From Rhizaria sp. SCN 62-66 (taxonomy: Eukaryota), in the NCBI GenBank assembly GCA_001724265.1, contig MEDY01000297.1, forward strand, positions 50,257 to 70,256: a stretch of 20,000 bases of DNA. Reading direction: 5' to 3'. A program made the translations under genes and the position numbers. This document shows, piece by piece, positions 1 through 19,342 of the stretch. The notes under the pieces are model-generated. The model was not told the origin of the DNA. It saw only the letters and a list, made by a program, of their open reading frames with translations, and made no database searches. Positions within the stretch are counted from its first letter, which is position 1; each line of letters begins with the position of its first letter.

Positions 1-3000
1 AGCAGCAGCAGCAGCAGTAGCGGCGACAGCGACAGCGACGAGACCGCTGACAGCGACTCAGACAGCGGAAGCGAGAGTAGCAGCGGCCACAGCGAGGGCG
101 AGAGTGGCAGTGACAGCCGTCGCCGCAGCAAGAAAACCACCACAAAGAAAAGCTCTGGCAACAAGCTTGATTCTCGCAAACGATCCTATAGCAACGATGC
201 GGGGGCTGCTCCACCGCCGCAGCCGCTGCGCCGCGGGCCTGTGGTTCAGTCCTTCCTGGAGGCGGTGCGCCGCGATGGCAGCGCGGTGCAGTGCAAGCTG
301 ACCGTGAGCACGACGCTCGACCTGACTGACCCGGACCAGGCCGCAGCCACCGACAAAAGCAATGGGGATGATGAGGGCAGCATCGTTAGCACTGATAGTG
401 TCAGTGCAGACGAGGCTGATGTTGTTGCTGGAGGCGATTGGCGGCCTATTTGCGTCGCAACAACGAAAGTGAGTGCGACTTCAAAAGACGCATATCCTGA
501 GACTGTCACTAAAACAGAGACTAAGACAAAGACAAAGGTTGTTAGGCCAAAGGATGGCAGCATTGAGCAGCAGCATCAGTGGTGCATGGAGGCTATCCTC
601 GCGCAAAGCGGCTTAACTCCAGCTCTGGATGGCATTACTTCTGCACCGGTTGCAGCTGCAGCCTTCTTTGACTTGCACCCAGTCTCAAACAATAACAGCA
701 TGAACTACAGCAGCATCATCACCGATTGCGAGCTTGACAGTAGAAAGCTTGCTACCAACTTAGATTGCGATAAGTCGAAATATCCTGTCACAGTCACCGT
801 TCCCGGCCAAGCGGATGCCAGTAACACTGCCAATGCTGATCTCACCGCCAAGGCTCGGAGCGATATTGCCGACTTCGCTGCTCGTGCCGCTGCTGTGGCC
901 GCTGCCGACGCCAAAGCAAAGCGGCTTAACTTGCCCGTGCCCCCGATTGCGACTGCAACAGTGCGCGCGCTATTTCTGCGCGGCTCAAGCGCCAACAGCA
1001 GCAAGAGCAAGAACAACAAGAGTGTGAAGAGCGGAAACAGCCGCGTAAACGTCAAAGGCAAAGTCAGCAACAAAGCAAAGAGCAGGGCGATCGATGACGG
1101 CGAGGACAACAGCTGCGACATCATCGGCAACAGCGACGACTTCGACGACAACGATGACGGCTAGAACAACGACTACGAAGACTGCGCTGCGCTCACGGCC
1201 GGGGACCTCGCCACATACGACATCGTGGTTGTATCTTACCAAACCGTTCTCGCCGCACACAAGCTCTGGCTTTCACAGTCACAGTCTTTGCCGTCGCAAC
1301 TGCAGTCTCAACAGCAACAGCAGCAGCAGCCGCCAGCGCTGTTCGGCGCGGCGTGGACGCGCGTGGTGCTCGACGAGGCGCATGTCACGCGCGCGGGCGG
1401 GGCCGTTGCGGACGCCGTGGCGGCGCTGCGAGTGCGGGCGGCCAGGAGCAAAGCTGCCGGTGCCGGCGCCAGTGCGAATCAGCAGACTAAGAGTGTCGCA
1501 ATCAGTGTCGTTGACAATATTGTTGCTGCGACCGTCGCTGCGGCGTACAACAACGCGCGCGGTCACCCAACCGCTCTCATCGCTGCCCGCGGTCACTCCA
1601 CGTCTGCCTTCACAGGTCAGCCGGTGCCGCAGCCTCCGCGCTTGCCGCTGCGGCCCGGCGGGCGGTGGGCGGTGACGGCCACGCCGTACAACAACGGCCT
1701 CGCGGACATGTACTTCCTGCTCGACTTCCTGCGCGTGCCCGTGCTTACGGTCGGCGGCGGCGGGCTCGCGATGGGACAGCTGTACTGCAAGCGCGAGCGG
1801 CAGCAACAACGCCAGCTTGAGAACGAGCGGGAGCGCGCGCAAGCGAGTTCCTCTGCCAAGGCGGGCTGGCTTAAGCACGAGCAGACGAGCGAGAACGACC
1901 GCGTCGCGTTCAAAGGCGGCTATGCGTCAACAGCGAGCAAGGCGATGAGTGCGCCGAAGGCAAAGGCAAGTGACAAGATCGCTCTGGCGTGGCACTTGCT
2001 GACGTCATCGCCCATTCCCGACCGCGGTCTGTCGCAGCTGGCGCAGGAGCACGACTGGGAGAGCGTCACGGAGCACAACTACTTTGCAACGCTCGCGAAG
2101 AACACGCAGATCTCAGCTCAGGGTGCTGATGCGAGCGCGATCTCTGGCGGTTTAACTACCCCCTTAGTGGTCGACGTGCCCGAGCTGCGCAGCGTGCTGA
2201 CAAGGCTCGCCGAGTGCGCCGACTGGGCGGCCGCCGTGGCGCCTGCTTGGCGGCGCGCTGAGCGGCTGCAGCTACAGCAACAGCGGCAACTGCAGCAACG
2301 GAGTGAAAGTGCAAAGAATGCAACTGTTGTTGCGGACAACAGTAGTGGCAGCAGCGCAGCAGCGAACGCCAATGATGGCGTGAGCAGTATCGATGCACTG
2401 ACTGCGAGTCTCAATGCTTTGTCGCTTAAAAAAGACGAGCAACCTCCGCAAAGCAGCAACAGCAACACTGACGGCACCGATGTTAAAGCCACGAATCCCA
2501 TTCCAGCTCTAAGGGCAGTCCCAGCTGCAGCCGTAGCCACAGCAGTCACCGATCTAGTTACAGCTTCACCTACTCTACCCCACTCCGAGGTCGATCGTTT
2601 GCTCTCCAACCACCGACAAGCCACCGCGGCGCAGCTGCGGCCGCTGCCGCCGACGCAGCGCGCCGCCGCCCGCGCCGCTACCGTGCTGGGGGAGTTTTTC
2701 GGCCCCCTGCTTCTGCGTCGCACCAAGGAGAAGGACCTGCAGCGGCCGCCGGCCCGCCTGGTGACCGTGAGCGTGCGCGGCAGCAGAGCGGAGCGCGCGC
2801 TGATGCGCGTAGTCGAGCAGACGTAGTACGAGAACGGCCAGAAGCAGCTGGCGGCGGCGAGCAAAAGCAGGGGCAATACTAAGAGCAACGGCAGCGCTGC
2901 TGGCGGAGTCAGTGTGGGGCTGAGGCTGTCGATGCTGCTGCGTCGCGTGGCAGCGCACCCTTGGCTGGCTCCGAGCGAGGCCATCGAAGGTGTGATGGCG

Positions 3001-4533
3001 GTGATTCGCAAGCACAACAGCAAGAACAAGAAGAGCACTGACACCAATAAGACTCAAATTGATGTTAACCAGGAGAGCAGTGCAAGCCCCGCGACTAAAG
3101 ATGCTGCTACTGTTGATTTGACACTTGACGACTTGACGAAACAGCTTGCTGCACTCTCCGTTAACTCTGTCGAGGCTAAGCCTCCAACTGATGCAGAGAC
3201 TAAGCCTCCCGTAGCGGTTGGTAGCGGCCGCATCCCACGCAAAGCCAAAGAGATCGTGGCAGTGCCTGTACCTGAGCTTCCTCCTGTAGCTGTGGCAACA
3301 GCTGCCACTGCTGCTACTGCTCCACAGAAGAATGTTAACACTTCTTCGAAGACCGGTACAACTACCAGCGCAGGCGCAAACACGTCTCTGTCGCAGTCAG
3401 ACTTGACGTCAGAGTCTCTGTCGCAGTCGCGGTCTACGTCCTCTCTGTGCCTCCCTGCGTTCTCGACCAAGACCCTGTCCCTGCTGCTGCTGCTCCAGTC
3501 CATCGCGCGCCGCGACCGCGGGGCCAAGGTCGTGGTCTTCTCGCACTGGACCGCCGTGCTTACAGCGGTGGAGCAGGCGCTTGCCGTGGGCTACGAGGGC
3601 AGCGAGCAGGCCAGGAGGGTCTTCGGCGTGGGCGCGGGAGACTGTGGGCAGGGTGAGCAGTATAGGGAGCGTGAGCAGGGGAAGTCCGCGCTGACGAGTG
3701 ACTGTGCGCACATGCAGGGGGAATGCGGGCCTGAGTGCGATGATGACTGCAACGGTAGCTGCAACTCTAACTCCAGCAAGACTAACGCTAAGAACTCAAA
3801 GACAAAGACTGGCAAATGCAAGATCTCTAACGATGATAACTTCGTTGAGGACGATATAAGTGGCTTCAGCGACATCGACTACAGTAGTGACAGCGATGAC
3901 GCCGATAACGATGACATTGCCTCCGATACCGTAAGCTCTCGCGCGAGCTCCAGCAAGAAGAAGACTGCACCGAAGGCTACTGCGACCGCCGCCGCGTCGG
4001 CGGCAAAGAAAGAGCAGCAGCAGCGGCGCCAACAGCGGCGGCTGCAACGCCTGCGCTCTCGCATGTGGTTCACAGCCGCATCTGCCACTAGCACAGCGCC
4101 GCTCGACGCAGACAATGACTGCCGAGGCAATAGTGCTACCAACGGAGTGCGTAACGTGTTTCGCATAGACGGCAGCATGAGCAAGGCCGCTGTCGAGCTC
4201 GAGCTCGCCCGCTTTAAGGCCTACAACCACGCCAACCACGCTGACGCGGGCGGAGGCGGCAGCAACAGCTCCGCGGTGCTGCTGGTATCGCTCGCAATGG
4301 CCGGCGTGGGGCTGAACCTGGTCGAGGCCAGCCACGCAGTGCTGCTGGAGCCCGCGTGGAACCCTGCCGCGGAGAAGCAGGCCGTGGACCGGGTCAACCG
4401 CGTCGGCCAACGGCGCGAAGTGACAGTGTGGCAGCTACGGGCCGTGCCCGGGGACCTGGCCGCCGTGGAAAGGCAGGGCGGGAAGCGCGGCGCGGCAGCC
4501 AGGGCAGTCAAGGCGGCGGTGGGGGGGCAGTGA
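1..4533 (+). CDS. SNF2-family helicase-like ATPase, RAD5/RAD16/TTF2-like; 5'-partial; two in-frame TAG codons (1162-1164, 2824-2826) read as sense
   Basis: Frame 1 is open from base 1 to TGA 4531-4533 except for two TAGs; ORFs 241-1164, 1225-2826 and 2914-4533 share one frame. Ordered SNF2 motifs: LATYDIVVVSYQTV, WTRVVLDEAH (II), RWAVTATPYNNGLADMYFLLDFL (III), LLLRRTK, LLRRVAAHPWL, STK...KVVVFSHW, FRIDGSMS, VLLVSLAMAGVGLNLVEAS (V), EPAWNPAAEKQAVDRVNRVGQ (VI). No Walker A is seen, so it presumably lies upstream of the window. Confidence 0.9.
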
Positions 4534-4879
4534 ACGCAGGCAACAGAGCAAAGTGTTGTAGGATCAACACATGACACACTTGCTCGATAAAATTATATTT
4601 AGGGCCAGTAGTATTTAGAAAATAATTGTTTGTATTATCGTCAGATTTGCTGCTCACTTTAGCGCATACGTACTGCGCTTGGAGTGCTGTTTGCATAACT
4701 GTCGCGACGTATGCTTGCTTAAATGTGTTTTTGTATTTCTTGCGTACTTGTGATATACTGACATATATGACATCATATGATACAGCAAAACTAATTAACA
4801 ACTTGAGCACGGCTGTTGCTATCGAATTCTAAGTGTTACATGTCCGGGGTGTACAAATGAATTGCCACTTGTAGCGACG

Positions 4880-7273
4880 TTACACAGCCTTGGTAGCCTT
4901 GTCGAAGTCCGCGGCGGAGACCTTGGAGAGACTGGCGACGGAGCCGAAGAGCCAGCTGGTGAAGTCGGGCACGGTCGCGATGGCCATCTTCTCGTCTGGC
5001 GAGTGGGCGCCCACGACTGTGAGCGTGGACGGAAGAGGAGGCAAAACATACGAAACGTAAACAAAAGAAATGATGAAAAAATGGCACAATTAACACAAAT
5101 AAACGTAGAAAATGTTTTTTTTTTGCATATGAATTAACATTTCGTATTGAAAATAACATCATATTTCATTTTCTTGGTGATTAGATGATCAAGTCAATGC
5201 ATTCGCTAGCGGCACGTACTGAGGGGGCCGATGGAGACGGCGTGGATGTCGGGGTAGACGCTCTTGATGGGTCCGCACTCAAGCCCGGCGTGCACGGAGT
5301 ACACCTGCGGCGCCGGCAGCGCGGGGAAGAGCTCCTTGTGCGATGACAGCACCGAGGCCAGCAGCGGCGACGACATCGCGGGCTCCCACCCGTTGAAGTA
5401 CGCGAAGGGCTTGGAGATCTTGGCGCCGGCCAGCGTGGCAAGCGCGCGGAGGCGGCGCGCAGTCTCGTGCAGCTGGAAGTCGGAGAAGGAGCGGTAGAAG
5501 CAGTGGATCATGAAGTAGTCGCCCTCGGGGTCCGCCTCGTCGGTGGTGCCATGGCGGCTCGCGGCCGCAGCCTCCTCGGCGGCGGCGGCCGCGGCGGCCG
5601 CGGCGGGCGTGGGGGTAAGGAGGACGATGGAGAGCGCGTTGGAGGTGTCGACGTCGCCGGCAACCTCAGGGGAGTAGCGGATCACGCCGTGGGGGATGCT
5701 CTGCACCAGCGCGGCAGCGCGCGCCGTGCACTCGGTCGTCAGCGGGCACAGCAGACCCGCAGACTCGGCCGCAGTAGGAGGCGCAGCGGCGGCGGCAGCG
5801 GCCACGGGCTCGAGCGGCGCGGCAGTAAGCTGCAGCGTCATGCCACAGAGCGCGCGAGCCTTGGCGGGCTCCGACGCGAGGGCCTTGGCCTCCATGCCCG
5901 CGGTCGACTGGGCCCCGTAGAGCCCCGCCGAGGCCTCGCCCAGCTTCGCCTTGGCCTCAGGCAGCAGCGACTCGGTCACAATGCCCGTGAAGAGCGCCGC
6001 CGCGGCCGCGGCCACGGACGCGGCGGCCGCGGCGGGCACCACGAGCGTTGCCGTGGCGTCGCGCGGGATCGCGTTGGGCGCGTTGCCGCCGCTGAAGCTC
6101 GCCAGGCCGAGCCCGTTGCCGCTGGCGCCGCTGCTAACGCTCGCGGTGTAGGCCTCGGTGGCCTCGCCGATGAGGCGGGCCATGACCTGGATGGCGTTGG
6201 CGCGCGCGGAGGCGGCGTCGACGCCGGTGTGGCCGCCCGCGAAGCCCGAGAGCGCGAGCGTAAGCGCGACCGCGTCCGTCTCAGCCGCCGCTGCCGGCAC
6301 CGCGAAGGCGGCCGTGGCGGCGGCCGTGGCGGTGGCGGCCGTGGTGTGCGCGTCGACGGTGACGGCACCGAGCTTGCCGGCGGCGGCGGCGGTCTTATAG
6401 GTGGTAGCGACGCGGGCGAGGGGCATGAAAAGCTTGCTCTCCATGCCGCCCGCGCAGCCGACGCACACGCAGTGGTCCTCTTCGCTGTCGACGTTGAGCA
6501 GCGCCTGCGCGGTGAGGAAGGGCGCGGGCGCAAGGTTGAGCGCGCCGCCCATCGTCGTCTCCTCCTCGACAGTGAAGAGGCACTCGAGGGGGCCGTGGGC
6601 GACCACAGACGCGTCGGCCTCGAGCAGCGCCAGCGCGGCCGCCACGCCGATGCCGTCGTCGGCACCCAGCGTGGTGCCCGCGGCCTGGACCCACTGGCCG
6701 TCGGCCGTCACGTCGGCGAGGATTGGGTCCGTGTCGAAGCAGTGGGTCGAGTCCATGGTCTTGCTAGTCACCATGTCGATGTGGCTCTGCACCGCGATGC
6801 GCACAGACGACTCGAAGCCCGGCGATGCGGGCTTGCGGACAAGGATGTTGCCCGCGGCGTCGACGCTGAAGGGCAGGCTCAGCGCGGTCGCGACCTCCTC
6901 GATCTGGGGCGATGTGAAACAAGCGATAGTGAAGAGAAGAAGCATGAAGTGTTGTTAAGATATGTTTCTGTGATGAAAGAAGCGCTTAAGACTAAGCCTA
7001 TATACTATATTATGAACCTGGTGTGATCTAAAGTGCGCGATCGTGTGCAGCGCTAGATGCAGCATTAGCATAGTTTGCGGTGCGTTTACGTACCTTCTTG
7101 CGCATGGCGTCCTCCTTGTGCGAGGGACGGGGCGTGTCGAAGCAGAGGAACATGTACTTCCACACGTTGTACAGCGGGGTGCCCTCCTGTGCCGCGGGCA
7201 CAATACGCGAGAACACGCCCTGGGAGCGGGCCGTCAGCAGCGAAGACGCGGACAACGCCGGGATAGACGACAT
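4880..7273 (-). CDS. pepD: Aminoacyl-histidine dipeptidase (PepD-like, peptidase M20C); exons 7273-7094, 6903-5220, 5016-4880; ~666 aa
   Basis: Motifs TPRPSHKE, QSHIDMV, TTLGADDGIG, EEETTMGGA, LLNVDSEE, GGHTG and HAGLECG. Splicing restores SIGPLIVGAHSPDE. Both introns are GTACGT...CAG, AT-rich and phase-compatible. Ends in TAA. Confidence 0.9.
5017..5219 (-). other. Spliceosomal intron 2 of pepD-like gene (203 nt, phase 1)
   Basis: GTACGT donor at 5219, CAG acceptor ending at 5017, very T-rich. The join gives ATC (Ile) and links SIGPL to the VGAHSPDE metal-ligand motif. Confidence 0.88.
6904..7093 (-). other. Spliceosomal intron 1 of pepD-like gene (190 nt, phase 0)
   Basis: GTACGT donor at 7093, CCCCAG acceptor ending at 6904, AT-rich; joins RPSHKEDAMRKK to IEEVA in frame. 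Confidence 0.88.
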
Positions 7274-7781: not shown

Positions 7782-9794
7782 ATGCGCCCGCTGCTGCAGC
7801 CCGGCTCGGCGCTCGCCAAGCGCCTCCGCACCCTCCACAAGGCCAAGGGTCGCCAGGCACAAAGTACGCACGCAAACCAAGCGAAAACGTTCCCTGATGA
7901 TCGATCTAAATCACAACCTCTTGCTGTTACACTGCTTTCATATTATTTACAACATTAACTTGTATTTGCCTGTTCACTCCTGACGTGTCTTCTAACTTTC
8001 ATGACTGCCTACGCATTCTGCTCCGATTGCTGCTCTGTTCTTACGACTGCTGCTGCTGCGTGTTTGCAGGCAGCTTCCTCGTCGAGGGCCGCAAGACCAT
8101 CGAGCACTTTATGTCCCGCCGCGGCGCTCCGCGCACGCTGCTGCTGGGCCAGGAGCAGCTTGCTGTGCTGGCCGCCGCCGCCTTTCCAGAGCACTCGCCC
8201 CCAAGCAGCCATAACTACAACAACGACAACCACCGGGAAAACAGTGCGACTGCGACGAGCGCGAGTGACCGCGCGCCCCCGCCGTCGCTCTCGGCCTCGG
8301 TCTTGGCCGCGTCGGCGCCCGTCAAGCAGCTGTGGCGCGCGGCGCTGCCCGGGGCCGTGGTCGCCTCGAGCCAGGCGCTCGAGCGGTGCTCGCATGCGCA
8401 GACCGCCTCGGGGTTTCTCGCGGAGTTCGCCCTCCTGCCCACGGTCACGCGCGTGTACGCAGTCGCGGGCCGCAGCCACACCAGCAGCAGCAGCGACGAC
8501 GGCTGTGGCCCTAGAGGCGGTGACAGCGAGTACGCCGATGCGAACGACGGCGACGATACCACTGTCAACACCGTGAGCAGCCGGGGCGATGGTGACTTCG
8601 TGCCCACATACGCGCTCCCGTTTCCCCCTCTTGCAGCAGTTTCTCCTGTCAACAATTGCGAAACCAAACTCAAGCTCGACAAGAGCTCTCAGGACGTTAT
8701 CCCAGTCCCCACCGACCCCACCACAGCGACATCCACAGCAGACGCAGCGTCGCCGCCGCCGCGGTGGGACTGGGCGGCGGGCGGGCTCGTGCTAGCGGGT
8801 GTGGCGGACCCCGGCAACGCGGGCACGCTTATCCGCACCGCGGTTGCGCTGGGCAGGCCACAGGTACGCCAGCGAAGACGCACACACACACACACACAAT
8901 ATCCCGCACTGTCATGTCACTGTACTTAATTTGTTTCTGTTTTTGCCTCTCGTACGAGCCATCGTCTTATTTTGATTGCGTTTTCTCGTTGCTCATATTG
9001 ATCTCATTGTGATCTGTTCCTGCTGCCATCGCCTTCATATGTTCCCATCTGTTCTCATGTGTTCTCTCGCGCGTGTGCCCGTGCAGGTGCTGCTGCTGGA
9101 CTGCGTGGACGTCTACAACAGCAAGGTCGTTCAGTCCACTGTGGGCGCCCTCGCCGACGCCGTCGTCGTCGAAGGCAGTGTAAAGGGCTTCGTGGGGTAC
9201 TTAGACGGCCTCAGTCGCGGGAACAAGAACAGCAGCGAAGACAACACTCTGCAAAGCGGCGAGAGTGAAAACGCCGACTCAGCGATGACCGATGCTGAGC
9301 AGCCCAGAGCTGCCTGTGCTGGCGCTGGCGAGCGCGTGCGTGCCCCGCTCGCGCCCTATGTGGTTTCGCTGGTGCCCGACGCCGCGGTCGACCTCACCGC
9401 GCTGCCCCCCGTGCTCGCCGCACACCACAGCGCACGCAACAGCGCACGCAACAGCGCCGGCGACAGCGTAGGCAACGGCAGTCGCGAGAGCGAGCGCAGC
9501 GCGGCGGTGCGGCGGCCGTGGGTTGTGGTGGGGTCCGAGGCGCACGGCGTGCCGCTGGCGCTGCAGCGCGCGGGCACGGCGTGTGCACGCATCACCATGG
9601 CCAGCCCGGACTCGCACCACAACGGCGCGCCTGCCGCTGCCACTGCCACTGGCACCGCGAGTGCGAGTCTGAATGCGACTGGCCTCGGTCTGGCGGGGGC
9701 GGTGGGCTCGCTCAACGCGTCAGTGGCCGGGGCCATCGCCTGCTACATCGTCGCGCGGGCCGAGGCGGGCCACGCGGGCGCGCGCGTCGTGTGA
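7782..9794 (+). CDS. SpoU/TrmH-family (SPOUT) RNA 2'-O-ribose methyltransferase; exons 7782-7863, 8070-8863, 9087-9794; ~527 aa
   Basis: N-terminal KRLRTLHKAKGRQAQSSFLVEGRK; SpoU motif 1 VADPGNAGTLIRTAVALG; DVYNSKVVQSTVGA; motif 2 VVVGSEAHGV; motif 3 SLNASVAGAIACY. Two phase-compatible GTACGC...GCAG introns. Ends in TGA. Confidence 0.88.
7864..8069 (+). other. Spliceosomal intron 1 of TrmH-like gene (206 nt, phase 1)
   Basis: GTACGC donor, TTTGCAG acceptor, AT/pyrimidine-rich; the join restores the frame into SFLVEG. Confidence 0.85.
8864..9086 (+). other. Spliceosomal intron 2 of TrmH-like gene (223 nt, phase 0)
   Basis: GTACGC donor, GTGCAG acceptor, T-rich; joins ALGRPQ to VLLLDCVDVYNSK. 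Confidence 0.87.
8881..8898. repeat. (CA)9 microsatellite inside an intron
   Basis: cacacacacacacacaca read directly from the sequence. Confidence 0.9.
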
Positions 9795-10626
9795 TGCTCG
9801 CGCGGATGGAGCGGAACTATTCGCTAAGATCATTAGTCACATGGTATTGCAAATGTCTATGAAGCGAGTTGTCATTAGCACGGATGTGCACGCCTCGTTG
9901 GCACGAATGGCGCTCAAATGCGGCGACGGTGAGACTGTGGAGGAAGTGAATGTTGCGGGTATTTATTCAGATGAAGATTTTCGTGATGCTAGTCTTTGTG
10001 CTAGAAGATTCAAAACGACGATTTACCCATCTTAAGAGGTCATCGTTCATCAAATATTTTTGACTCACCTCACTTAATTCCTGTACGTAGTACGTACAGT
10101 ACATACAATTTTCAATGTTTACATGACTTGCCTACAGGCAACCACTGCTCACCTAAGCTTCATTCACTCGAGTAAACTCGATCCAGGATATTTATCCAAA
10201 TCTAGCCATGTCGCTCCTCATTTTGTGAATTGATAACATAACTGCACCATTTGATTGTGTGATGTAGGACAAAGGAACACACGGGAGCGAGACAATTAGC
10301 TTAAAAGGATTACTACCAGTGTGTGCGAGCCACAGCAGCCCTGTCTGTATCGGGTGTCTCTGTTGAACATCGTGTATCTTTCGCTTCTAATCGTCAAATG
10401 GGAAATAAATATTGGAAGTTGATTTTAGCCGCTAATTTGATACTGTTTTGTTTTTATATCAAACGAAAAACTGCCTCTCTGGTCTAAAAATCTCGCACTG
10501 CAATCCACTCACTCACCGTCCGTCTCGAGCTATCTTCTCCCGCGCTCTATACCACTATCATATCGCTTTGCATTTCTTTTAAATCGTGGTTTTTGGTGTA
10601 TTCCTGTGTGGATTTCTGCAGACTAT

Positions 10627-13254
10627 ATGTCTAGTGAAACAGACAAGTCTTCTCTACTCGAGCCACACCAGCTCGAAATCCCTACGCACTCAGCGGACAG
10701 CGAAACGTGCGACGTCCAGCCCGCGCTCGCCTCTGCCTCCACCGAGAACAGCGCCGACGCGGACACAGACCCCGACACTGATGTGTCCGTCGTGCCCGCC
10801 TCAGCCTCGACCTTGTTTCCGCCGCGCGCGTACGCGGCCGTGGTGCCGCGCCTACGCTTCCCGCGCTACGTGCACGGGCTCTTCTTCGCCGCGCACCTCG
10901 ACGACCCGCCCGCGGCGTACCTCTCGCTGTGGCCGCACCGCCTCACGCTGCTGCACTTCGCGCTTGCGGGGCTCGACGCGTTGGGCCAGCTTGACCTCCA
11001 TGTGCCTCCCGGCAGCGCGCGCAGGGCTGAGATCGTCGAGTGGGTCTACAAACTGCAGGCCGGCGCAGCCAGCAGTGGCAGCAGCGGCGACGGCGGCTGC
11101 AGCAGCCACAGCGGGAGCAGCGGCGCTGAGGGCACCGTTGCCGACAAGACGACTGGTAACTCTTGCATTGCTAGCGGCATGCTTGGCGACGGCATCAGCG
11201 CTGGCAGCAACGGCAACGCTCACAGTGCGTACACTGACAGCGTAGCTAGCCCGGTGACTGTGAGCCCATACGAACGCTTCCGCGCACTCGGCGGCTTTCG
11301 GGGCGCTCCGCTGATGCAGGGCGTTTACGGCAACAGCTCTAGCACCCCAACCAATGCTGCCGCTATCCCACAACCGCAGCCGCAGCCGCAACCCCCCTGC
11401 GCACAGGCGTCGTCGTAGTCCGCCGGCTCGCCGTGCTGCCCACCGCCGCCGTCACCGTCTGCGCTGTACCTGGACGTGTCGACGCTGCCGTCGACATACA
11501 GCGCGCTCTGCGTGCTCAGCATCCTGGGTGACCCGCTCGACCGCGTGCGCCGCGCGCCGCTGGCCGCGCTGCTCCGCGCCTGCATACTGCGCAGCCGCAG
11601 CGGGGCCCGCGCCAGCGCTGGCGCGGTCGCCGATCCGAACTCGATGGTTAGCAGGAGCAGTGGTGCGAGAGTTAGCGTGGAGAGCGCTGCTGACTCTGGT
11701 GACGCCGCGCAGTATGATTGCGACGCCGACGTAGACGCCGACGCAGACTACACCGACTTCAGCGACAGTGGCAGTGGCAGTGACAGTTGCAGCGACGGCG
11801 GCGGCGACAGCGATAATGTCCGTGATAATGAGGGCTCGAGTGCTCAGATGAATGATACCAAGACGAAGAGTCCCCGTGCTTCAAAGTCGACCTCTGAAAA
11901 GACCCCTGCGCCAGTGCAAGTGTTCAGCTCGCCGCTGCACGAAGAGGCGGACGTGCGGTTTGTCTACTGCGTGTGTGCGATTGCGCAGCTCGCAGACGCC
12001 GCCGCGCAGCGCAGCATCGCGCGCGACGCGGCACTGCGCGCCGCGACTGCAGCACAAAGTCCATAGCAGCGCGCAAGCGCGAGTACTATTACTAATGGTA
12101 GTGACGGTGACTATGCCAGCGGCGTGTCAGTGTGGGCCTCGGTGCCACTGCGCCCCCTCGCGGCTTATATTCGGTCGCTGCAGACCAGGGACGGCGGGCT
12201 CGCGCTTCTGCCTGCTGACAACGACAATAGTAGCGGCCACAGCAGTGACCGCTCCAACGACACATATGGATTTGATTCCCTCGCTGCTGTTGGGAAGCAG
12301 TTTTACGACTGCGACGTTGATGATGACACTAACAGTGCGAACGGCGGTCGTCGCGACTGCTGCTGGCAATCTCCACTTCCCTCCGCCGCTCACTCTGCTG
12401 CTGCTGCAACTTTCCACAGTACGACATACACGTGCACCGTGCCTCTCGGCCTGTACCAGCGGCTGCCGCGCCCGCTGCTGGCGCCCGTCAGCCTCGAGGG
12501 CCACGGCGGCTCTACCTACACTGGGCTCGCCGCGCTCACGCTGCTCGGGATGCGCGCGCGTGCACTGCGGCGGGGCGGGAAGCGGCGCACGCAGAGGCGG
12601 ACGCCGCAGCAGCGCGAGCAAGCGGATGAACAGCCGCGGCCCCGCGCTGCGTCCGCCGGCCGCAGCACCGTCTCGCTGCCGCGCGGCCTGCTGCCCGCGG
12701 CGGCGGCACGCGCGGCGCTGCGGTGGGCGAGTCTGCGGCAGGGCGATGGCTTCAGCGGGCGCGTGGGCAAGGCGCCCGACAGCTGCTATGCCTTCTGGGT
12801 CGGCGCGTCGCTGCACCTGCTCGCGGGCACCGACGCCGCGGGCCGGCCGCGGCTGCGCACGCAGCGCACAGCTGGCAATCGCGCGTTTGTGGTGCGCGCG
12901 TGTGAGGGTGCGCGGGCGGGGTTCGGCCGCGACGCCGAGTCGGGCGCCGAGGTGTACCACAGCCACTACGCCGTCGCGGGGCTGGCGCTGATGCAGGCCG
13001 AGGACGGGCGCGACGCCAACAACGAGTGCGCGCACGGCTGCGACGACGAACCGTGCGCGCGGTGCGAAAGCGGCTGTGAACAGGACGACGACGGCGACGG
13101 TGACGAAGAGGACGAGGACGAGCACCGGGCGGCGCACTGGCGTCTGGCCCCGATCGACCCCGTGCTGGGCATCTCGCGCCGCGCCGCGGGCACCGAGGGC
13201 GTCGCCTACCCGGGGCTGCTGCCGCGGGGCGACATCGAGCTCCAGTTTGAGTGA
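10627..13254 (+). CDS. PGGT1B: Geranylgeranyltransferase type-I beta subunit (PGGT1B/Cdc43-like); two in-frame TAG codons (11416-11418, 12064-12066) read as sense; ~875 aa
   Basis: ORFs 10606-11418, 11476-12066 and 12124-13254 share one frame. Colinear GGTase-I beta blocks: YLSLWPHRLTLLHFALAGLDALG, IVEWVYKLQ, GGFRG, TYSALCVLSILGDPLDRV, EADVRFVYCVCAI, YIRSLQTRDGGL, LEGHGGSTYTGLAALTLLG, RQGDGFSGRVGKAPDSCYAFWVGASL (Zn-ligand D-x-C), EVYHSHYAVAGLALM (Zn His). First ATG at 10627; ends in TGA. Confidence 0.88.
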
Positions 13255-13768
13255 CTGCGACTGCGGCCAGAGCCGAGAGTGTCAGAGGGACCTGAGATTG
13301 TGAGTAGAGTTTAATCATGTTGAGTGTAGAAGCTTAACATTCAGACGTAGTCATGGCGATACGAATACATGGCAACACTCTACTTTTGTAAGATTGCAAC
13401 TTGCGCGCTGCAATTTTTCCCCTTCATAATGAAAACTCTGTATATCAGCTGGGTATTTACTTCGACATCCTCCTCTTCCGCACCGTGACAACTATCGTCA
13501 AGACTCTCAGCATAATTCTCATGTGCATCTACCTTTCATGGCTGCACTTGCGTCTTGCAAACCTGTGCAAGTTTTACCTGATAAACCCGAGTGACAGTCA
13601 TTTCAAGTGCTGCGCGATCATATGTTTCCGCACGCGCATCTGTGTGTGCGCGCTACACCGCTACACCGCGACGCGACGCGCCAGGTTACGCTGCGCTTGT
13701 CATGTGTCACAGACCTACCTATGTGGCGCAAATTGGCAAACAGTGATAGGCTCAGCGTTGGAGCTGCC

Positions 13769-14971
13769 TTATCCAAAATACAGAAACAGCGCCTTAAAGA
13801 TCTGCTCTTTGTGGACCTCGCTGAAGTTCTTGTTGTTCATAAGGCGCTTGTAAAAGCCCCGTATCTCCGAGGAGAAGTCGTCATCCCTGCCCCACGCTAT
13901 TTTGCTTAGGGCGTCGGGCAACATCAGCGACGCGAAGCGGTACTTGGGCGGGTCCGTGCTCGACTTGTTCTCGGGCCCTTTGCAGATGATGCGGTCTGAG
14001 TGGATGGTCACCGTGTCGCTGATGCCGTACGCGGTCCGCTTGCCGGTGTGGAGGTTGAACACGAGGTCGTGCGGCATCGAGGTGCCGTCGAGGATGCTCT
14101 CGAGAGCGCCGAAGTGGTGCTTCGTCATGTTGCGCAAGGCGTACAGCAGCTTGTTGACGTCACGCGTCTCTTTTTCATACGCGGCGAGCTCCTCTGCACT
14201 CATCTCATCCCAGTACGGGAAAGTCTCGTTTTCGTCCTTAGCCACGAGATTGGCCCTCTACATCTCGTCGTAGATCCGCTGCACGGCTGTCCTGGCCTTT
14301 GCAATCCTGGCCTTGGCCTTCTTAAACTCGGCCTCAGCGTCCTTCTTTTTCTGTTCGTCACTGTCGAAAACGTCCTGAAGAAGGCTGGTCTCCATCAGTG
14401 CCTGCGCAAGCTCGGCCTGGTGGCACGCCTGCTGCGCCTTGACGAGCTCAGCCTCGGCGTCGGACATGCGGATCTTGTACCGCATCAGCTCGATCCTGTT
14501 ACAAAGGCTCTTGGTCGAGCTCTCGACATGCTCTACCGCCATCTCAGCCCTCTCCACCTTAACATCACCATCCTCGGCGGTTATCGCGTCGGACACCGCC
14601 TTCTGCGCCTGCGCCAGCTTCACCTCGGACTGCGCCTTGACGAGTGCGGCGGCGGCCGCCAGGAACTCGGAGGCATGCGCCTTGGAGCTTTCGGGCTGCC
14701 GCATTGCAGACGCGGACGCGGACGCTGATGAGAACGAGGACGAGGACGAGGATGAGGACGCGCCGCCAGCCTTGCGGCCCTGGTTGAGGGCGAAGAAACG
14801 CTTGGTGGCGGCCTTAAGCCGACGCTTCAGCTCGGCAGGCGACGTCTTGGCGTCGTCGTCTTCAGACTCGAAGTTGTCAGAAGCGGAGTGGACGGGGGTG
14901 GAACCGTCATTCATGAATCCGCCTGAGCTCGGGGCTGCGTTCTTGGACGACTTCTTCGAAGGCAAACTCAT
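13769..14971 (-). CDS. Hypothetical protein (~400 aa): low-complexity N-terminus, Ala/Glu/Lys-rich coiled coil, globular-looking C-terminal domain; one in-frame TAG at 14260-14258
   Basis: ORFs 14971-14258 and 14245-13769 are in the same frame, separated only by TAG (IYDEM*RANLVAKDE). Codon-like GC3 bias continues on both sides, and the downstream ORF as called begins at GTG, not ATG. Ends in TAA. No family recognised. Confidence 0.7.
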
Positions 14972-15538: not shown

Positions 15539-17303
15539 TCAAATTGTGTAGAACGAGGTCTGGAAGTGCGTGTAGTGCCTAACGTCCACGGCGGGCAGGT
15601 TCTCCGGCCACAGCCACTTGCCCATCCTGCCCAGCGCGTAGTTGGCGCCGACGAAGAGCGGCGCGTGCACGAGCGGGACCTGCAGCGCGCCGCGGTACAG
15701 CGCGCGCACGCCGCCCTGTGCGAGCACCATGCGCAGCATATTGGCGTGGATGGAGCCGTTTTTGGCCAGCCCCACGTACCCGCGGTTCTGCGCCACGGCC
15801 ACGGCGGTGCGCAGCGTCCACAGCGGGTATGCGGCCAGCCCGGCGGCGGTGGCCGCCGCACCCGTGGCCGCGAGCGAGTGGTGGAACAGGTCGCGCTCTA
15901 GCGGCGACATCGCGGGACCCGGCCGCGGCGCCAGACGCGCGCGCTGCTCCGCCGTCAGGTTCGGGTAGTCGTACTTCTTCATCACGAACGCCGAGGCAAG
16001 ATTCATGAACATGCCCGTCGCGCCCGCGTAGGCCGCCGTGTACAGAGACATGTGCGCCAGAGAGGCCAGGCCGCCGCGCAGCGTGCCGCGCCACGTGTCG
16101 AACAGCGCCGTGTCGCGCAGCATCGCCAGCGCGGGCGACGAAGACGAGAGCAGCGCCTTGTGCTTCGCGCTCGTCGCCGCGCGCGCGTAGCCCTCCTGTC
16201 GAAACCAAGAAAGAATGAAGGAGTCGAAATACGAAACGATTGAGATCAAAGTCAAAATGCAGTAAAAAAAACAACAAAAATGGATACAATTGCGGTATAA
16301 TTCTGTGACATCTGTTCATATCAGGAAGATATCGTCTGATTTGTGAGTTCTAGTAACGTATGCGTACCTGGATGTGCTTGGGCAGCGGCGGCAGCGCGCG
16401 CGGCGCGAGCGTAGTCCTGTCGGCGGCGACGCGCGTACCCAACGCCCAGAGCGGGAACGTGGCGTATATGCATGCCATGTTGACGACCGCGTGCGCCTGC
16501 GCCAGCGCCGTGTCCGTGTCGGTCGACAACGAGGGCCGTAGTCCCGGCAGCAGCGCCAGCGGCAGCAGGAAGGGCGCACCCAGCAGCAGCGAGGTCGCGA
16601 GCTGCAGCGCGGCCTGCGGAAAGCCGCGCCAGAGCCCGCGCGCGCCCTGACGCTGCCAGACGAGGCGGAAGGCGGCCCGCAGCGTCGCCGTGCGCGGCTC
16701 CTCGGCGGCCGCGCGCAGGCAGCCCGCCTCAAGCGCGGACCGCAGCAGCAGCGCCTGCCCCGTCTGCACGCCCGCGCTCGCGCCGAGGTGCGCGGGAGGC
16801 ACACCCAGCTTCAGGTACGTCGTCGCCGTCGTCGTCGCCGTCGCCGCCGCAGTGGGGGCGGCAGACGCAGCGGCGGTGGGGGCCTTGGCGAAGGCGGAGA
16901 CGGGAGCCGGGGAGCCGCCGGCCGCCGCGGCAGCAACAGCGGCGGCGTCAGGCGCAGCGGCAGCTGCAGCCGCGCCAGTGGCGGGAGCGGGGGCGATTTT
17001 GAGGATGTGTGCGAGCGCGGTGGTGGTGACAAGGTCGGTGGCCTGGAGGATGCGGAGGCGCTCGAGCGGGTACGCCACAGCGGCGATGGCCGTGAGCGGC
17101 GCGGCCGTGTAGAGCGCGCTCTTGAACAGGAAGGACCAGAAGTCGAGCGTCGGCACCGCGGCCGCTGCGGCGCCCGTGGGGACCGCGGCCGGCACGGCCG
17201 AGTCGGGGCTCGATGACGCCAGCGTGTGGCCGGGGGCCAGGCGGCCCGCGGAGGCGGCCAGGGACAGCGTCGCCTCGGCCGAGTGCGCGGGAGCAGTCGC
17301 AGT

Positions 17304-17340
<37 letters not shown>

Positions 17341-17369
17341 TCAGTGCCTTGGTTGGAGGGAGAGCTCAT
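15539..17369 (-). CDS. Divergent mitochondrial carrier family (SLC25-like) protein; exons 17369-16368 and 16195-15539; ~552 aa
   Basis: Three carrier-like repeats: YPLERLRILQ...QGARGLWRGFP, FPLWALGTRV...FDTWRG, YPLWTLRTAV...QGGVRALYRG. Phase-0 GTACGC...CAG intron. ATG at 17369 (MSSPSNQG); ends in TGA. Confidence 0.8.
16196..16367 (-). other. Spliceosomal intron of SLC25-like gene (172 nt, phase 0)
   Basis: GTACGC donor at 16367, TTTCGACAG acceptor ending at 16196, T-rich; joins KHIQ to EGYAR. Confidence 0.87.
17304..17339 (-). repeat. (GCT)12 trinucleotide repeat encoding poly-Ala near the SLC25-like N-terminus
   Basis: Uninterrupted agc x12 on the + strand. Confidence 0.88.
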
Positions 17370-17881: not shown

Positions 17882-19342
17882 ATGCTTCGCTTCTCTTCTC
17901 GCCTCTCCCGCACCGGTGCGTCGGCACTCAACAAGGCCTCGGCCTCGGTCTCCGCCGCCGCCGCTGCCTCTGTCTCCTCTTTCGCTGCCCTCAGCAAGAC
18001 TCAGACCGCGCTCCCTACCCCCGCGGCGGCCGCGCGCTTCTACTCCGTGGCACTCTCGAGTGCGCTCCGCTCCGCGGGCGCCAGGAGCGGCGCTGCCAAG
18101 CCCACCAAGGACATCTACAGCCACCTCTCCCCGTCCAAGGTCGCTCCCGTCTCCAGTGCTGCCGCCAGCGCCGGCAAGGCGGCACCCAGTCTGTTCAAGG
18201 ATCCCCTTGCGTGGAGCCTCGCGCTGCCTACGCTGCTCCCCACCGCGGCCTGCGCCGACCCCGCCAGCACCTCCGCCGCCGCCGCCGCCGCCGCCAACTC
18301 CGCTGCTGCCGCTGCCCCCGCGGGCGCGGCCGACGTCGCCGCCGCGGCGGCCGCGTCAGCGTCCAGCTCGCTGTCGCCGCTGCCGAACCTGGGCCTCACG
18401 CCCACGATCCCCGGCCCGTTCGTGCAGTCGCTCGTGGACATCGTGACCAACTGGCAGGCGCTCACGGGACTGCCGTGGTGGGGTTCGATCGCCACGCTGA
18501 CCGTGCTCGTGCGTCTGCTGACGCTGCCGATCAACCTGAAGCAGGTCCAGTCCTCAGGTCGCATGATGAACGCGCAGCCGGACCTGCAAATGCTGCGCGC
18601 GCGCATGGACGCCGCCAAGGCCGCCGGCGAGGAGGTGATCCCCTCGCTGCACGCGCAGCAGGTCCGCGAGATCTTCCTCCGCCACCGCGCTTCGCCCTTT
18701 GGCACCATGGGACTGGCTCTTGCCTCGATGCCCATCTTCTTCGGGCTCTTCTGGATGTTCCGCGCGACGGTGATCCACCCCGAACTGATCCCGCTGCTCG
18801 AGCACGGCGGCTTCGCGCTCTTCGGTGACCTCCGCTTCATGGACCTCACCAAGGCCGACCCCTACTACCTCGCACCGCTGGTCTCGACCGTGACCGTGCT
18901 GGGCATGCTTGAGATGGCGCAACGTGAGAACGTCTCAACCGCCAAGACGGCCGTCATGATGAAGCATGTCATGCGCGCCGTGTCCATCCTCTCCTTCCCG
19001 CTCATCTGCAACTTCCCTCTGGGCCTCTTCGCCTTCTGGATCCCCTCGAACCTCTTCTCGTTGACCTTCTCCATTGTCTCGCGTCAGCCCGCGGTGCGCA
19101 AGGCCCTGGGCATCCCCACCATGGAGCAGCTCAAGCGCCTCACCATCGCGAACGAATCGGCCGCGTCGGGCCGCGTCGCCGAGGCCGCGCAGGAGCAGGC
19201 CCGCGCGCGCGCCATCAACGCCGCGCAGAACTCGGGCGCACCGCTCAACCCGCAGGTTTTTGTGCCCGCGCGGCCCAAGAAGGGCGCCAAGCCTTCCAAG
19301 TTCGGCGCGGGCGCCGGCGCCGGCGCGGCGGGGCAGCAGTGA
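17882..19342 (+). CDS. OXA1: Mitochondrial inner-membrane insertase Oxa1 (YidC/Oxa1/Alb3 family), ~486 aa, intronless
   Basis: TGLPWWGSIATLTVLVRLLTLPINLKQ, MPIFFGLFWMFR, DLTKADPYYLAPL and FPLGLFAFWIPSNLFSL...PAVRKALGIP. The N-terminus MLRFSSRLSRTGASAL... is Arg/Ser/Ala-rich and acid-free, like a mitochondrial presequence. First in-frame ATG at 17882; ends in TGA. Confidence 0.92.
   Translation: MLRFSSRLSRTGASALNKASASVSAAAAASVSSFAALSKTQTALPTPAAAARFYSVALSSALRSAGARSGAAKPTKDIYSHLSPSKVAPVSSAAASAGKAAPSLFKDPLAWSLALPTLLPTAACADPASTSAAAAAAANSAAAAAPAGAADVAAAAAASASSSLSPLPNLGLTPTIPGPFVQSLVDIVTNWQALTGLPWWGSIATLTVLVRLLTLPINLKQVQSSGRMMNAQPDLQMLRARMDAAKAAGEEVIPSLHAQQVREIFLRHRASPFGTMGLALASMPIFFGLFWMFRATVIHPELIPLLEHGGFALFGDLRFMDLTKADPYYLAPLVSTVTVLGMLEMAQRENVSTAKTAVMMKHVMRAVSILSFPLICNFPLGLFAFWIPSNLFSLTFSIVSRQPAVRKALGIPTMEQLKRLTIANESAASGRVAEAAQEQARARAINAAQNSGAPLNPQVFVPARPKKGAKPSKFGAGAGAGAAGQQ

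Follow-up and report, generated by a model that had tools for sequence, protein, structure and literature searches.

We report that a stretch of eukaryotic DNA, positions 50,257 to 70,256 of contig MEDY01000297.1, likely belongs to an organism that reads UAG as an amino acid while retaining both UAA and UGA as stop codons. The window, by which we mean the whole 20,000-nucleotide (nt) stretch analysed here, is nuclear DNA of a GC-rich, intron-bearing eukaryote present in wastewater and bioreactor metagenomes, and the argument centers on the TAG codons found within its genes and on the TAA that ends a pepD-like gene (aminoacyl-histidine dipeptidase, M20) at 4882-4880 of the minus strand. Seven gene models could be built, each of which is open to one terminal stop if internal TAG is allowed. 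Over their 5016 codons there are five in-frame TAGs, which are confined to three genes, and not a single TAA or TGA. The genes end in TGA (five) or TAA (two) and never in TAG, though with so few genes the latter absence would be fairly frequent even under the standard code. The preliminary description of this DNA, made from the sequence alone, had proposed that UAA remains a stop and is decoupled from a UAG that has become sense, and within the 20-kb window this proposal is supported by TAA ends backed by homologues and by Pfam domains that run across the TAGs.

The five TAGs are located in an SNF2-family helicase gene (plus strand, 1-4533, with its 5′ end beyond the window and a stop TGA at 4531-4533; TAG at 1162-1164 and 2824-2826), a prenyltransferase beta-subunit gene (plus strand, 10627-13254, stop TGA 13252-13254; TAG at 11416-11418 and 12064-12066) and an orphan gene of 400 codons (minus strand, 13769-14971, stop TAA 13771-13769; TAG at 14260-14258), gene family names here and below being those of Pfam. 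In the prenyltransferase, three pieces lying between TAGs match the alpha-alpha toroid family PF00432 collinearly (profile positions 5-66, 75-117 and 173-303), and in the helicase TAG 2824 falls between the SNF2-rel_dom that precedes it and the Helicase_C that follows. The GC content at third codon positions (GC3) is 0.65-0.90 around all five TAGs, no stop interrupts the frame in the 60 codons to either side and the local GC is 0.55-0.76 versus 0.33-0.48 in the introns. The other two frames of the window genes are rich in stops; for example, frame 3 of the SNF2 gene contains 26 TAA, 14 TAG and 42 TGA. The triplets immediately 3′ of the TAGs are AAC, TAC, TCC, CAG and AGG. All five TAGs lie in inserts or weakly conserved stretches, with four of them in or next to low-complexity insertions, and searches for a residue aligned to SNF2 TAG 2824, using the surrounding region against the sequence database and against PDB sequences, returned no match. 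As a parsimonious guess, UAG would be translated as Gln. Low-complexity insertions, long and rich in Ala, Ser, Gln or Asn/Asp, are found amid the conserved blocks of the SNF2, prenyltransferase and pepD proteins, and the prenyltransferase reaches about 875 amino acids as compared with 142-405 in the homologues listed.

Public predictions of the window's proteins (P0007, P0132, P0138) are fragments, which are cut at a TAG or an intron, or run into introns. The pepD prediction ends in SIGPLSTCR within the second intron of that gene, and the orphan prediction is split at its TAG. The SNF2, prenyltransferase and orphan predictions are fragmentary because standard gene callers cut at TAG.

The pepD-like gene is modelled on the minus strand with three exons, which upon splicing give 666 codons without an internal stop. 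Exon 1 (7094-7273, ATG at 7273-7271) encodes an N-terminus like that of its relatives, with the motifs WKYM and CFDTPRPS, and is followed by intron 1 (6904-7093, GTACGT...CAG, 190 nt, GC 0.43), exon 2 (5220-6903) and intron 2 (5017-5219, GTACGT...CAG, 203 nt, GC 0.33), which holds a non-coding TAG at 5208-5206. The last exon (4880-5016, phase 1, GC 0.66, GC3 0.91) encodes ...IVGAHSPDEKMAIATVPDF...SKVSAADFDKATKAV* and reads AAG GCT GTG TAA at its end. The HSPDE motif of this exon, which had been described as lying shortly before the TAA, is 38 residues upstream of it. The database search revealed a clade of relatives, four of which, spliced and transcript-like (P0010, P0012, P0136 and P0137; 44-47% identical according to the rows of their clusters), read SIGP(L/Y/T)I..AHSPDEK without interruption over the junction left by intron 2, and three unspliced predictions (P0008, P0009 and P0011) enter an intron at the same residue. 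Among the former, P0010, P0136 and P0137 end in LSKV.A.DF and P0012 has four residues more. An alignment (A1) with ten homologues, i.e., the four transcript-like relatives, the proteins of Balamuthia, Ammonia and Blattamonas, one MMETSP transcript and two bacterial proteins, reveals that each of the ten stops 0-15 columns short of the TAA of the window; the window protein is the longest and none of the homologues has anything like a 124-residue tail. Judged by these protein ends, the pepD TAA looks genuine as the end of the gene. The relatives' ends are standard-stop gene calls, and for those that may share the window's code such calls alone cannot tell a stop from a sense TAA; the argument is therefore carried by the three named eukaryotes and the two bacterial proteins, for which use of standard stops is taken as given.

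If TAA and TAG were both sense, the pepD frame would continue for 124 codons (terminal TGA included) up to a TGA at 4510-4508 of the minus strand, crossing a single TAG at 4831-4829 on its way. This TGA, the first in frame past the TAA, lies 26 nt within the coding sequence of the convergent SNF2 gene. The coordinates given earlier for the TAA, the TGA, the overlap and the approximately 124-codon extension are all exact, and the change from GC-rich codons to AT-rich sequence that had been remarked on at the TAA is also evident on measurement: GC falls from 0.66 in the last exon to 0.42 in the extension and GC3 from 0.91 to 0.42. The extension has no Pfam family above cut-off. Between the two convergent genes lies an AT-rich spacer (4534-4879), which in the pepD frame contains no TAA, one TAG and no TGA, and which presumably holds the 3′ untranslated regions (UTRs) of both.

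The sequence of the pepD end is reproduced in other assemblies. A Joint Genome Institute (JGI) metagenome contig (L001) is identical to window positions 4041-6613 at 2573 of 2573 bases, and the pepD TAA is thus not an assembly slip. Likewise, contigs from run X3, which belongs to a different study, have no differences over 1-3535 and 12363-13996, regions that include TAG 1162, TAG 2824 and the orphan TAA. A contig of a variant strain (run X4) that spans 4044-5507 has 15 differences from the window, all of them listed and none of them at 4880-4882. On this contig, all eight differences in coding sequence are at third codon positions, as compared with two of six in the extension, a contrast that lends weak support to the pepD end; the single contig was chosen after the data had been seen. 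The same variant strain carries, in its SNF2 gene, deletions of 4 and 2 bases placed 5 nt apart (712-718, net 6) and, in its prenyltransferase gene, a 3-base insertion at 12329, all of which keep the frame and are consistent with the gene models; a 24-base deletion is present in the spacer at 10156.

The second TAA end is that of the orphan gene, which the preliminary description had likewise placed correctly (13771-13769). A HMMER scan of 1.84 billion representative sequences using the orphan protein returned three proteins, of which one is the window's own fragment. The other two are P0133 (66% identical over residues 55-264) and P0134 (72% identical over residues 304-426 of 427). P0134 ends in ...KEQIFKTLFLFLR, at the same position at which the window protein ends in ...KEQIFKALFLYFG followed by TAA; on this protein-level comparison the position of the end is conserved and the orphan TAA, too, looks genuine. 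P0134 had no match among viral contigs. P0133 and its cluster mate P0135 are predicted to end in RIYDEI, which aligns with the RIYDEM-TAG (14260-14258) of the window, and the 123 residues downstream of this TAG are 72% conserved in P0134. That a relative with 66-72% identity should be predicted to stop at this very codon hints that TAG positions are under selection, this being one case and a predicted protein end. TAG amounts to only about one per 1000 codons in the window, and were it a rare synonym of a common codon, one would not expect to find it kept at this site.

Several observations weigh against the proposed code. The pepD frame has no TAA or TGA through the entire 115-codon spacer, which is how a real read-through tail would look, and such openness is seen in 0.38% of mononucleotide shuffles for the pepD frame and in 2.3% for any of the six frames. 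We argue, from composition and homology, that the openness is due to chance, and we have no explanation to offer for it. The orphan TAA is followed by DNA that is not AT-rich (GC 0.59), with a TGA only 23 codons further on. When all listed coding differences of the variant strain are taken together, the list comprising 40 of 167 differences, 11 of 23 are at third positions as compared with two of six in the extension (Fisher p = 0.66). No tRNA gene and no Rfam family were found in the window. The TAA ends number only two, i.e., two of the seven gene ends, as the preliminary description had itself cautioned. It had also suggested counting terminal versus internal TAA; across the seven window genes there are two terminal TAAs and none among 5016 internal codons, a zero that has almost no power: at the NAA/NAG ratio of 0.197, even a TAA that was a synonym of TAG would occur internally only about once (P(0) = 0.37), and its absence is therefore nearly uninformative.

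The count of internal TAAs and the open spacer frame bear directly on the possibility that UAA and UAG have both been reassigned, with UAA being dual or context-dependent (sense inside genes and a stop near the mRNA end) in the manner of Blastocrithidia, such that there would be no true decoupling. Dual-meaning UAA is on record (PMC12153298 and PMC12152300, as far as the available text of these reports goes), and the scarcity of expected internal TAAs (about one, P(0) = 0.37) together with the 115 spacer codons without TAA or TGA (p = 0.0038) would suit it. We nevertheless regard it as unlikely, since there are no in-frame TAAs in the 5016 codons, since TGA serves as an ordinary stop in the window (five of seven ends, none internal) but is among the reassigned codons in Blastocrithidia, and since GC3 collapses past the pepD TAA, where the homologues also end. 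It is very improbable that the pepD TAA is not a coding end at all, with GTAACG (4883-4878) being a splice donor that leads to a further exon. The G-TAA-CG sequence does form a GT-initial hexamer; however, all five introns of the window start with GTACG and not GTAAC, no homologue has residues past the pepD end, and no GC3-rich segment occurs between the TAA and the SNF2 gene.

A standard code, under which the five TAGs would be put down to gene decay by nonsense mutation, to programmed read-through, to mRNA editing or to sequencing error, and TAA would simply be an ordinary stop, is quite unlikely in our estimation. In its favor, GC3-rich genes reach stops by single-base change mostly as TAG, such that five TAGs out of five would have a probability of about 0.09 as estimated from codon counts, and none of the RNA contigs listed crosses a TAG. 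But the five stops are found in three of seven genes that are otherwise intact, with neither a frameshift nor a TAA or TGA, and Pfam domains continue past the TAGs in frame and collinearly. An independent run has TAGs 1162 and 2824 unchanged (X3, contig 1-3535, no differences), the same orphan codon is a predicted stop in the 66-72% identical relative with conserved sequence downstream, the differing 3′ contexts of the five TAGs provide no common read-through motif, and TAG ends none of the seven genes. A code in which both UAA and UAG specify Gln (UAR = Gln, NCBI table 6 type) was also considered and set aside on account of the two homologue-supported TAA ends and the non-coding composition past the pepD TAA. 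An aphelid lead (Amoeboaphelidium, UAR = Gln) was dropped as well, as it is a misfit with TAA as a stop.

Under the code that we favor, with UAG as sense and UAA and UGA as stops, ribosomes of the organism would decode UAG as an amino acid and would still terminate at UAA and UGA. The reading frame of the pepD-like mRNA would end at the UAA at 4882-4880 and that of the orphan mRNA at the UAA at 13771-13769, and the AT-rich DNA past the pepD TAA would be non-coding, comprising 3′ UTR and spacer. Such decoding probably involves a tRNA with the anticodon CUA that pairs with UAG and not UAA, and a release factor eRF1 in which recognition of UAG may have been lost or weakened and recognition of UAA and UGA kept.

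As for the genomic setting, coding blocks of high GC (up to 0.78) are interspersed with AT-rich spacers and introns across the window, whose overall GC is about 0.61 and in which the GC3 of the seven genes, taken over whole genes, is 0.70-0.92. The remaining genes are a SpoU-type methyltransferase (plus strand, exons 7782-7863, 8070-8863 and 9087-9794, stop TGA 9792-9794), a mitochondrial-carrier-like gene (minus strand, 15539-17369, exons 17369-16368 and 16195-15539, stop TGA 15541-15539) and an Oxa1/YidC-type insertase (plus strand, 17882-19342, stop TGA 19340-19342). The SpoU and carrier matches are under the Pfam cut-offs, the latter being weak (E = 0.0087). Five introns are present in the gene models (7093-6904, 5219-5017 and 16367-16196 on the minus strand; 7864-8069 and 8864-9086 on the plus strand), all of which start with GTACG (GTACGT in two, GTACGC in three), end in CAG and are 172-223 nt long with a GC of 0.33-0.48, and the exons around them have GC3 of 0.8-0.9. 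The GTACG donor is unusually uniform and could help identify the lineage. Named homologues of the window proteins are distant and scattered. A search using the C-terminal part of the prenyltransferase gave seven matches, among which the sole named one was a weak match to Coemansia thaxteri, of no help in placing the organism, and a protein-atlas search using the Oxa1 domain gave generic eukaryotic clusters only. The presence of an Oxa1-type insertase and a carrier-like gene presumably argues against a fornicate, given the nature of the organelles of that group.

The same DNA, or that of a strain 1-2% different, turns up repeatedly, in several studies and over several years, in runs from bioreactors, wastewater and activated sludge (X1-X9). 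Long matching pieces come from X3, of one study, and from X4 and X5, of another, and the two best-matching runs are from a third study. In an activated-sludge library of poly(A) RNA (X5), exon-only pieces of most of the genes are present and 27 of the 30 bins of the window have depth; bins 4670-5336 and 13341-14007 are without a contig, and the RNA pieces listed cross no TAG or intron, gaps which carry no weight. The organism is apparently a recurrent and transcriptionally active resident of such systems. Besides L001, the metagenome scan found one distant locus (L002, 29% identical) and did not return the contig of the pepD relative that is 68% identical (P0008). When P0008 itself was searched against genome contigs, all 80 loci kept were labelled as prokaryotic and were 30-34% identical.

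Reassignment nearly always affects UAA and UAG jointly, and each lineage that separates the two therefore bears on why this is so. Such a lineage tests whether a tRNA with a CUA anticodon and an eRF1 that discriminates the third base suffice, and it raises the question whether UAG-only codes are stable end states or steps toward UAR reassignment. The present case also has a practical side in that standard gene callers cut genes at every TAG, and the proteome of this organism is mis-annotated in public collections. We consider it possible, with somewhat less than even confidence, that the window represents a clade of eukaryotes undescribed in print, aerobic and GC-rich, with AT-rich introns that begin with GTACG, recurrent in wastewater and bioreactors, in which UAG alone was reassigned, in an origin separate from the ciliate, fornicate, rhizarian and green-algal ones. 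On that reading, if the orphan stop site is shared, TAG positions would be held by selection, and such selection, if true, would suggest that TAG carries a meaning of its own, or is decoded under regulation, and is no rare synonym of a common codon. The published UAG-only cases are mostly AT-rich ciliates with UAA as the main stop (PMC11687900, available text), and a GC-rich organism in which TGA is the main stop and TAG is still rare would make a contrasting, possibly early-stage case.

Two features of the UAG-only class are found in the window, viz., in-frame UAG in genes that continue beyond it and UAA as the terminator at homology-supported ends (two genes), and no feature of the class is contradicted. 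The organism is probably a fresh instance of an already described code class, in which the reassignment possibly originated independently. The preliminary description had listed the fornicate Iotanema spirale, a rhizarian and some ciliates as UAG-only lineages; these entries hold, but the list was incomplete, as it lacked Scotinosphaera, Protocruzia tuzeti and several phyllopharyngean ciliates (PMC11687900, in its accessible portion, to which the comparisons below with that report are also limited). A UAG-only code is rare, yet less exceptional than that description implied. In the literature searched, no GC-rich eukaryote from wastewater was described with a code of this kind, an absence that applies to that literature and is not proof. 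Nor did literature on wastewater protists with a UAG code, on codes new since 2024, on Scotinosphaera or on GTACGT donor sites point to the identity of this organism.

In I. spirale (Fornicata), UAG specifies Gln and UAA and UGA are the stops, and a tRNA with anticodon CUA is predicted (Panek et al. 2017, PMC5304391, as given in the sections available). The window resembles it in having in-frame UAGs in its genes, no UAG seen as a terminator and termination at UAA and UGA, although the Iotanema code was drawn from hundreds of transcripts and ours from five TAGs and seven gene ends. In the rhizarian exLh, covered by the same sections, UAG specifies Leu, occurring 384 times in 71 genes, and the stops are UAA (56) and UGA (15). 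The window is like exLh in that UAG alone is reassigned and UAA is retained as a stop; however, UAG is abundant and UAA the main stop in exLh, whereas in the window TAG occurs once per 1000 codons and TGA is the main stop (five of seven). The contexts of the five window TAGs are polar and of low complexity, and not Leu-like, which is suggestive only. The eRF1 of exLh was reported to be without an obvious motif change (Panek et al., PMC5304391), and a change in the N-domain of eRF1 is thus not strictly defining for UAG-only codes.

The same class of code, with UAG as sense and UAA as a stop, is found in Scotinosphaera (Ser), Protocruzia tuzeti (Gln) and five phyllopharyngean ciliate genomes (Leu or Gln) (McGowan et al. 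2024, PMC11687900), and in one further ciliate UAA and UAG specify two different amino acids (PMC11687900, PMC5304391). According to the logic proposed in these reports, a tRNA with anticodon CUA recognizes just UAG, while one with UUA would pair with both codons through wobble. Of the genes of those ciliates, 86.9-98.3% end in UAA (PMC11687900), as compared with two of seven in the window, and the composition of the window (GC about 0.61, GC3 up to 0.92) along with the presence of several spliced genes on one long contig does not seem ciliate-like. The codes in which UAR specifies Gln, as in many ciliates, hexamitid diplomonads, some ulvophytes, Streblomastix and Amoeboaphelidium (PMC11687900), share a sense UAG with the window but differ from it in reading UAA as sense as well and having UGA as their sole stop, whereas two of the window's genes end in TAA, at the ends of their homologues.

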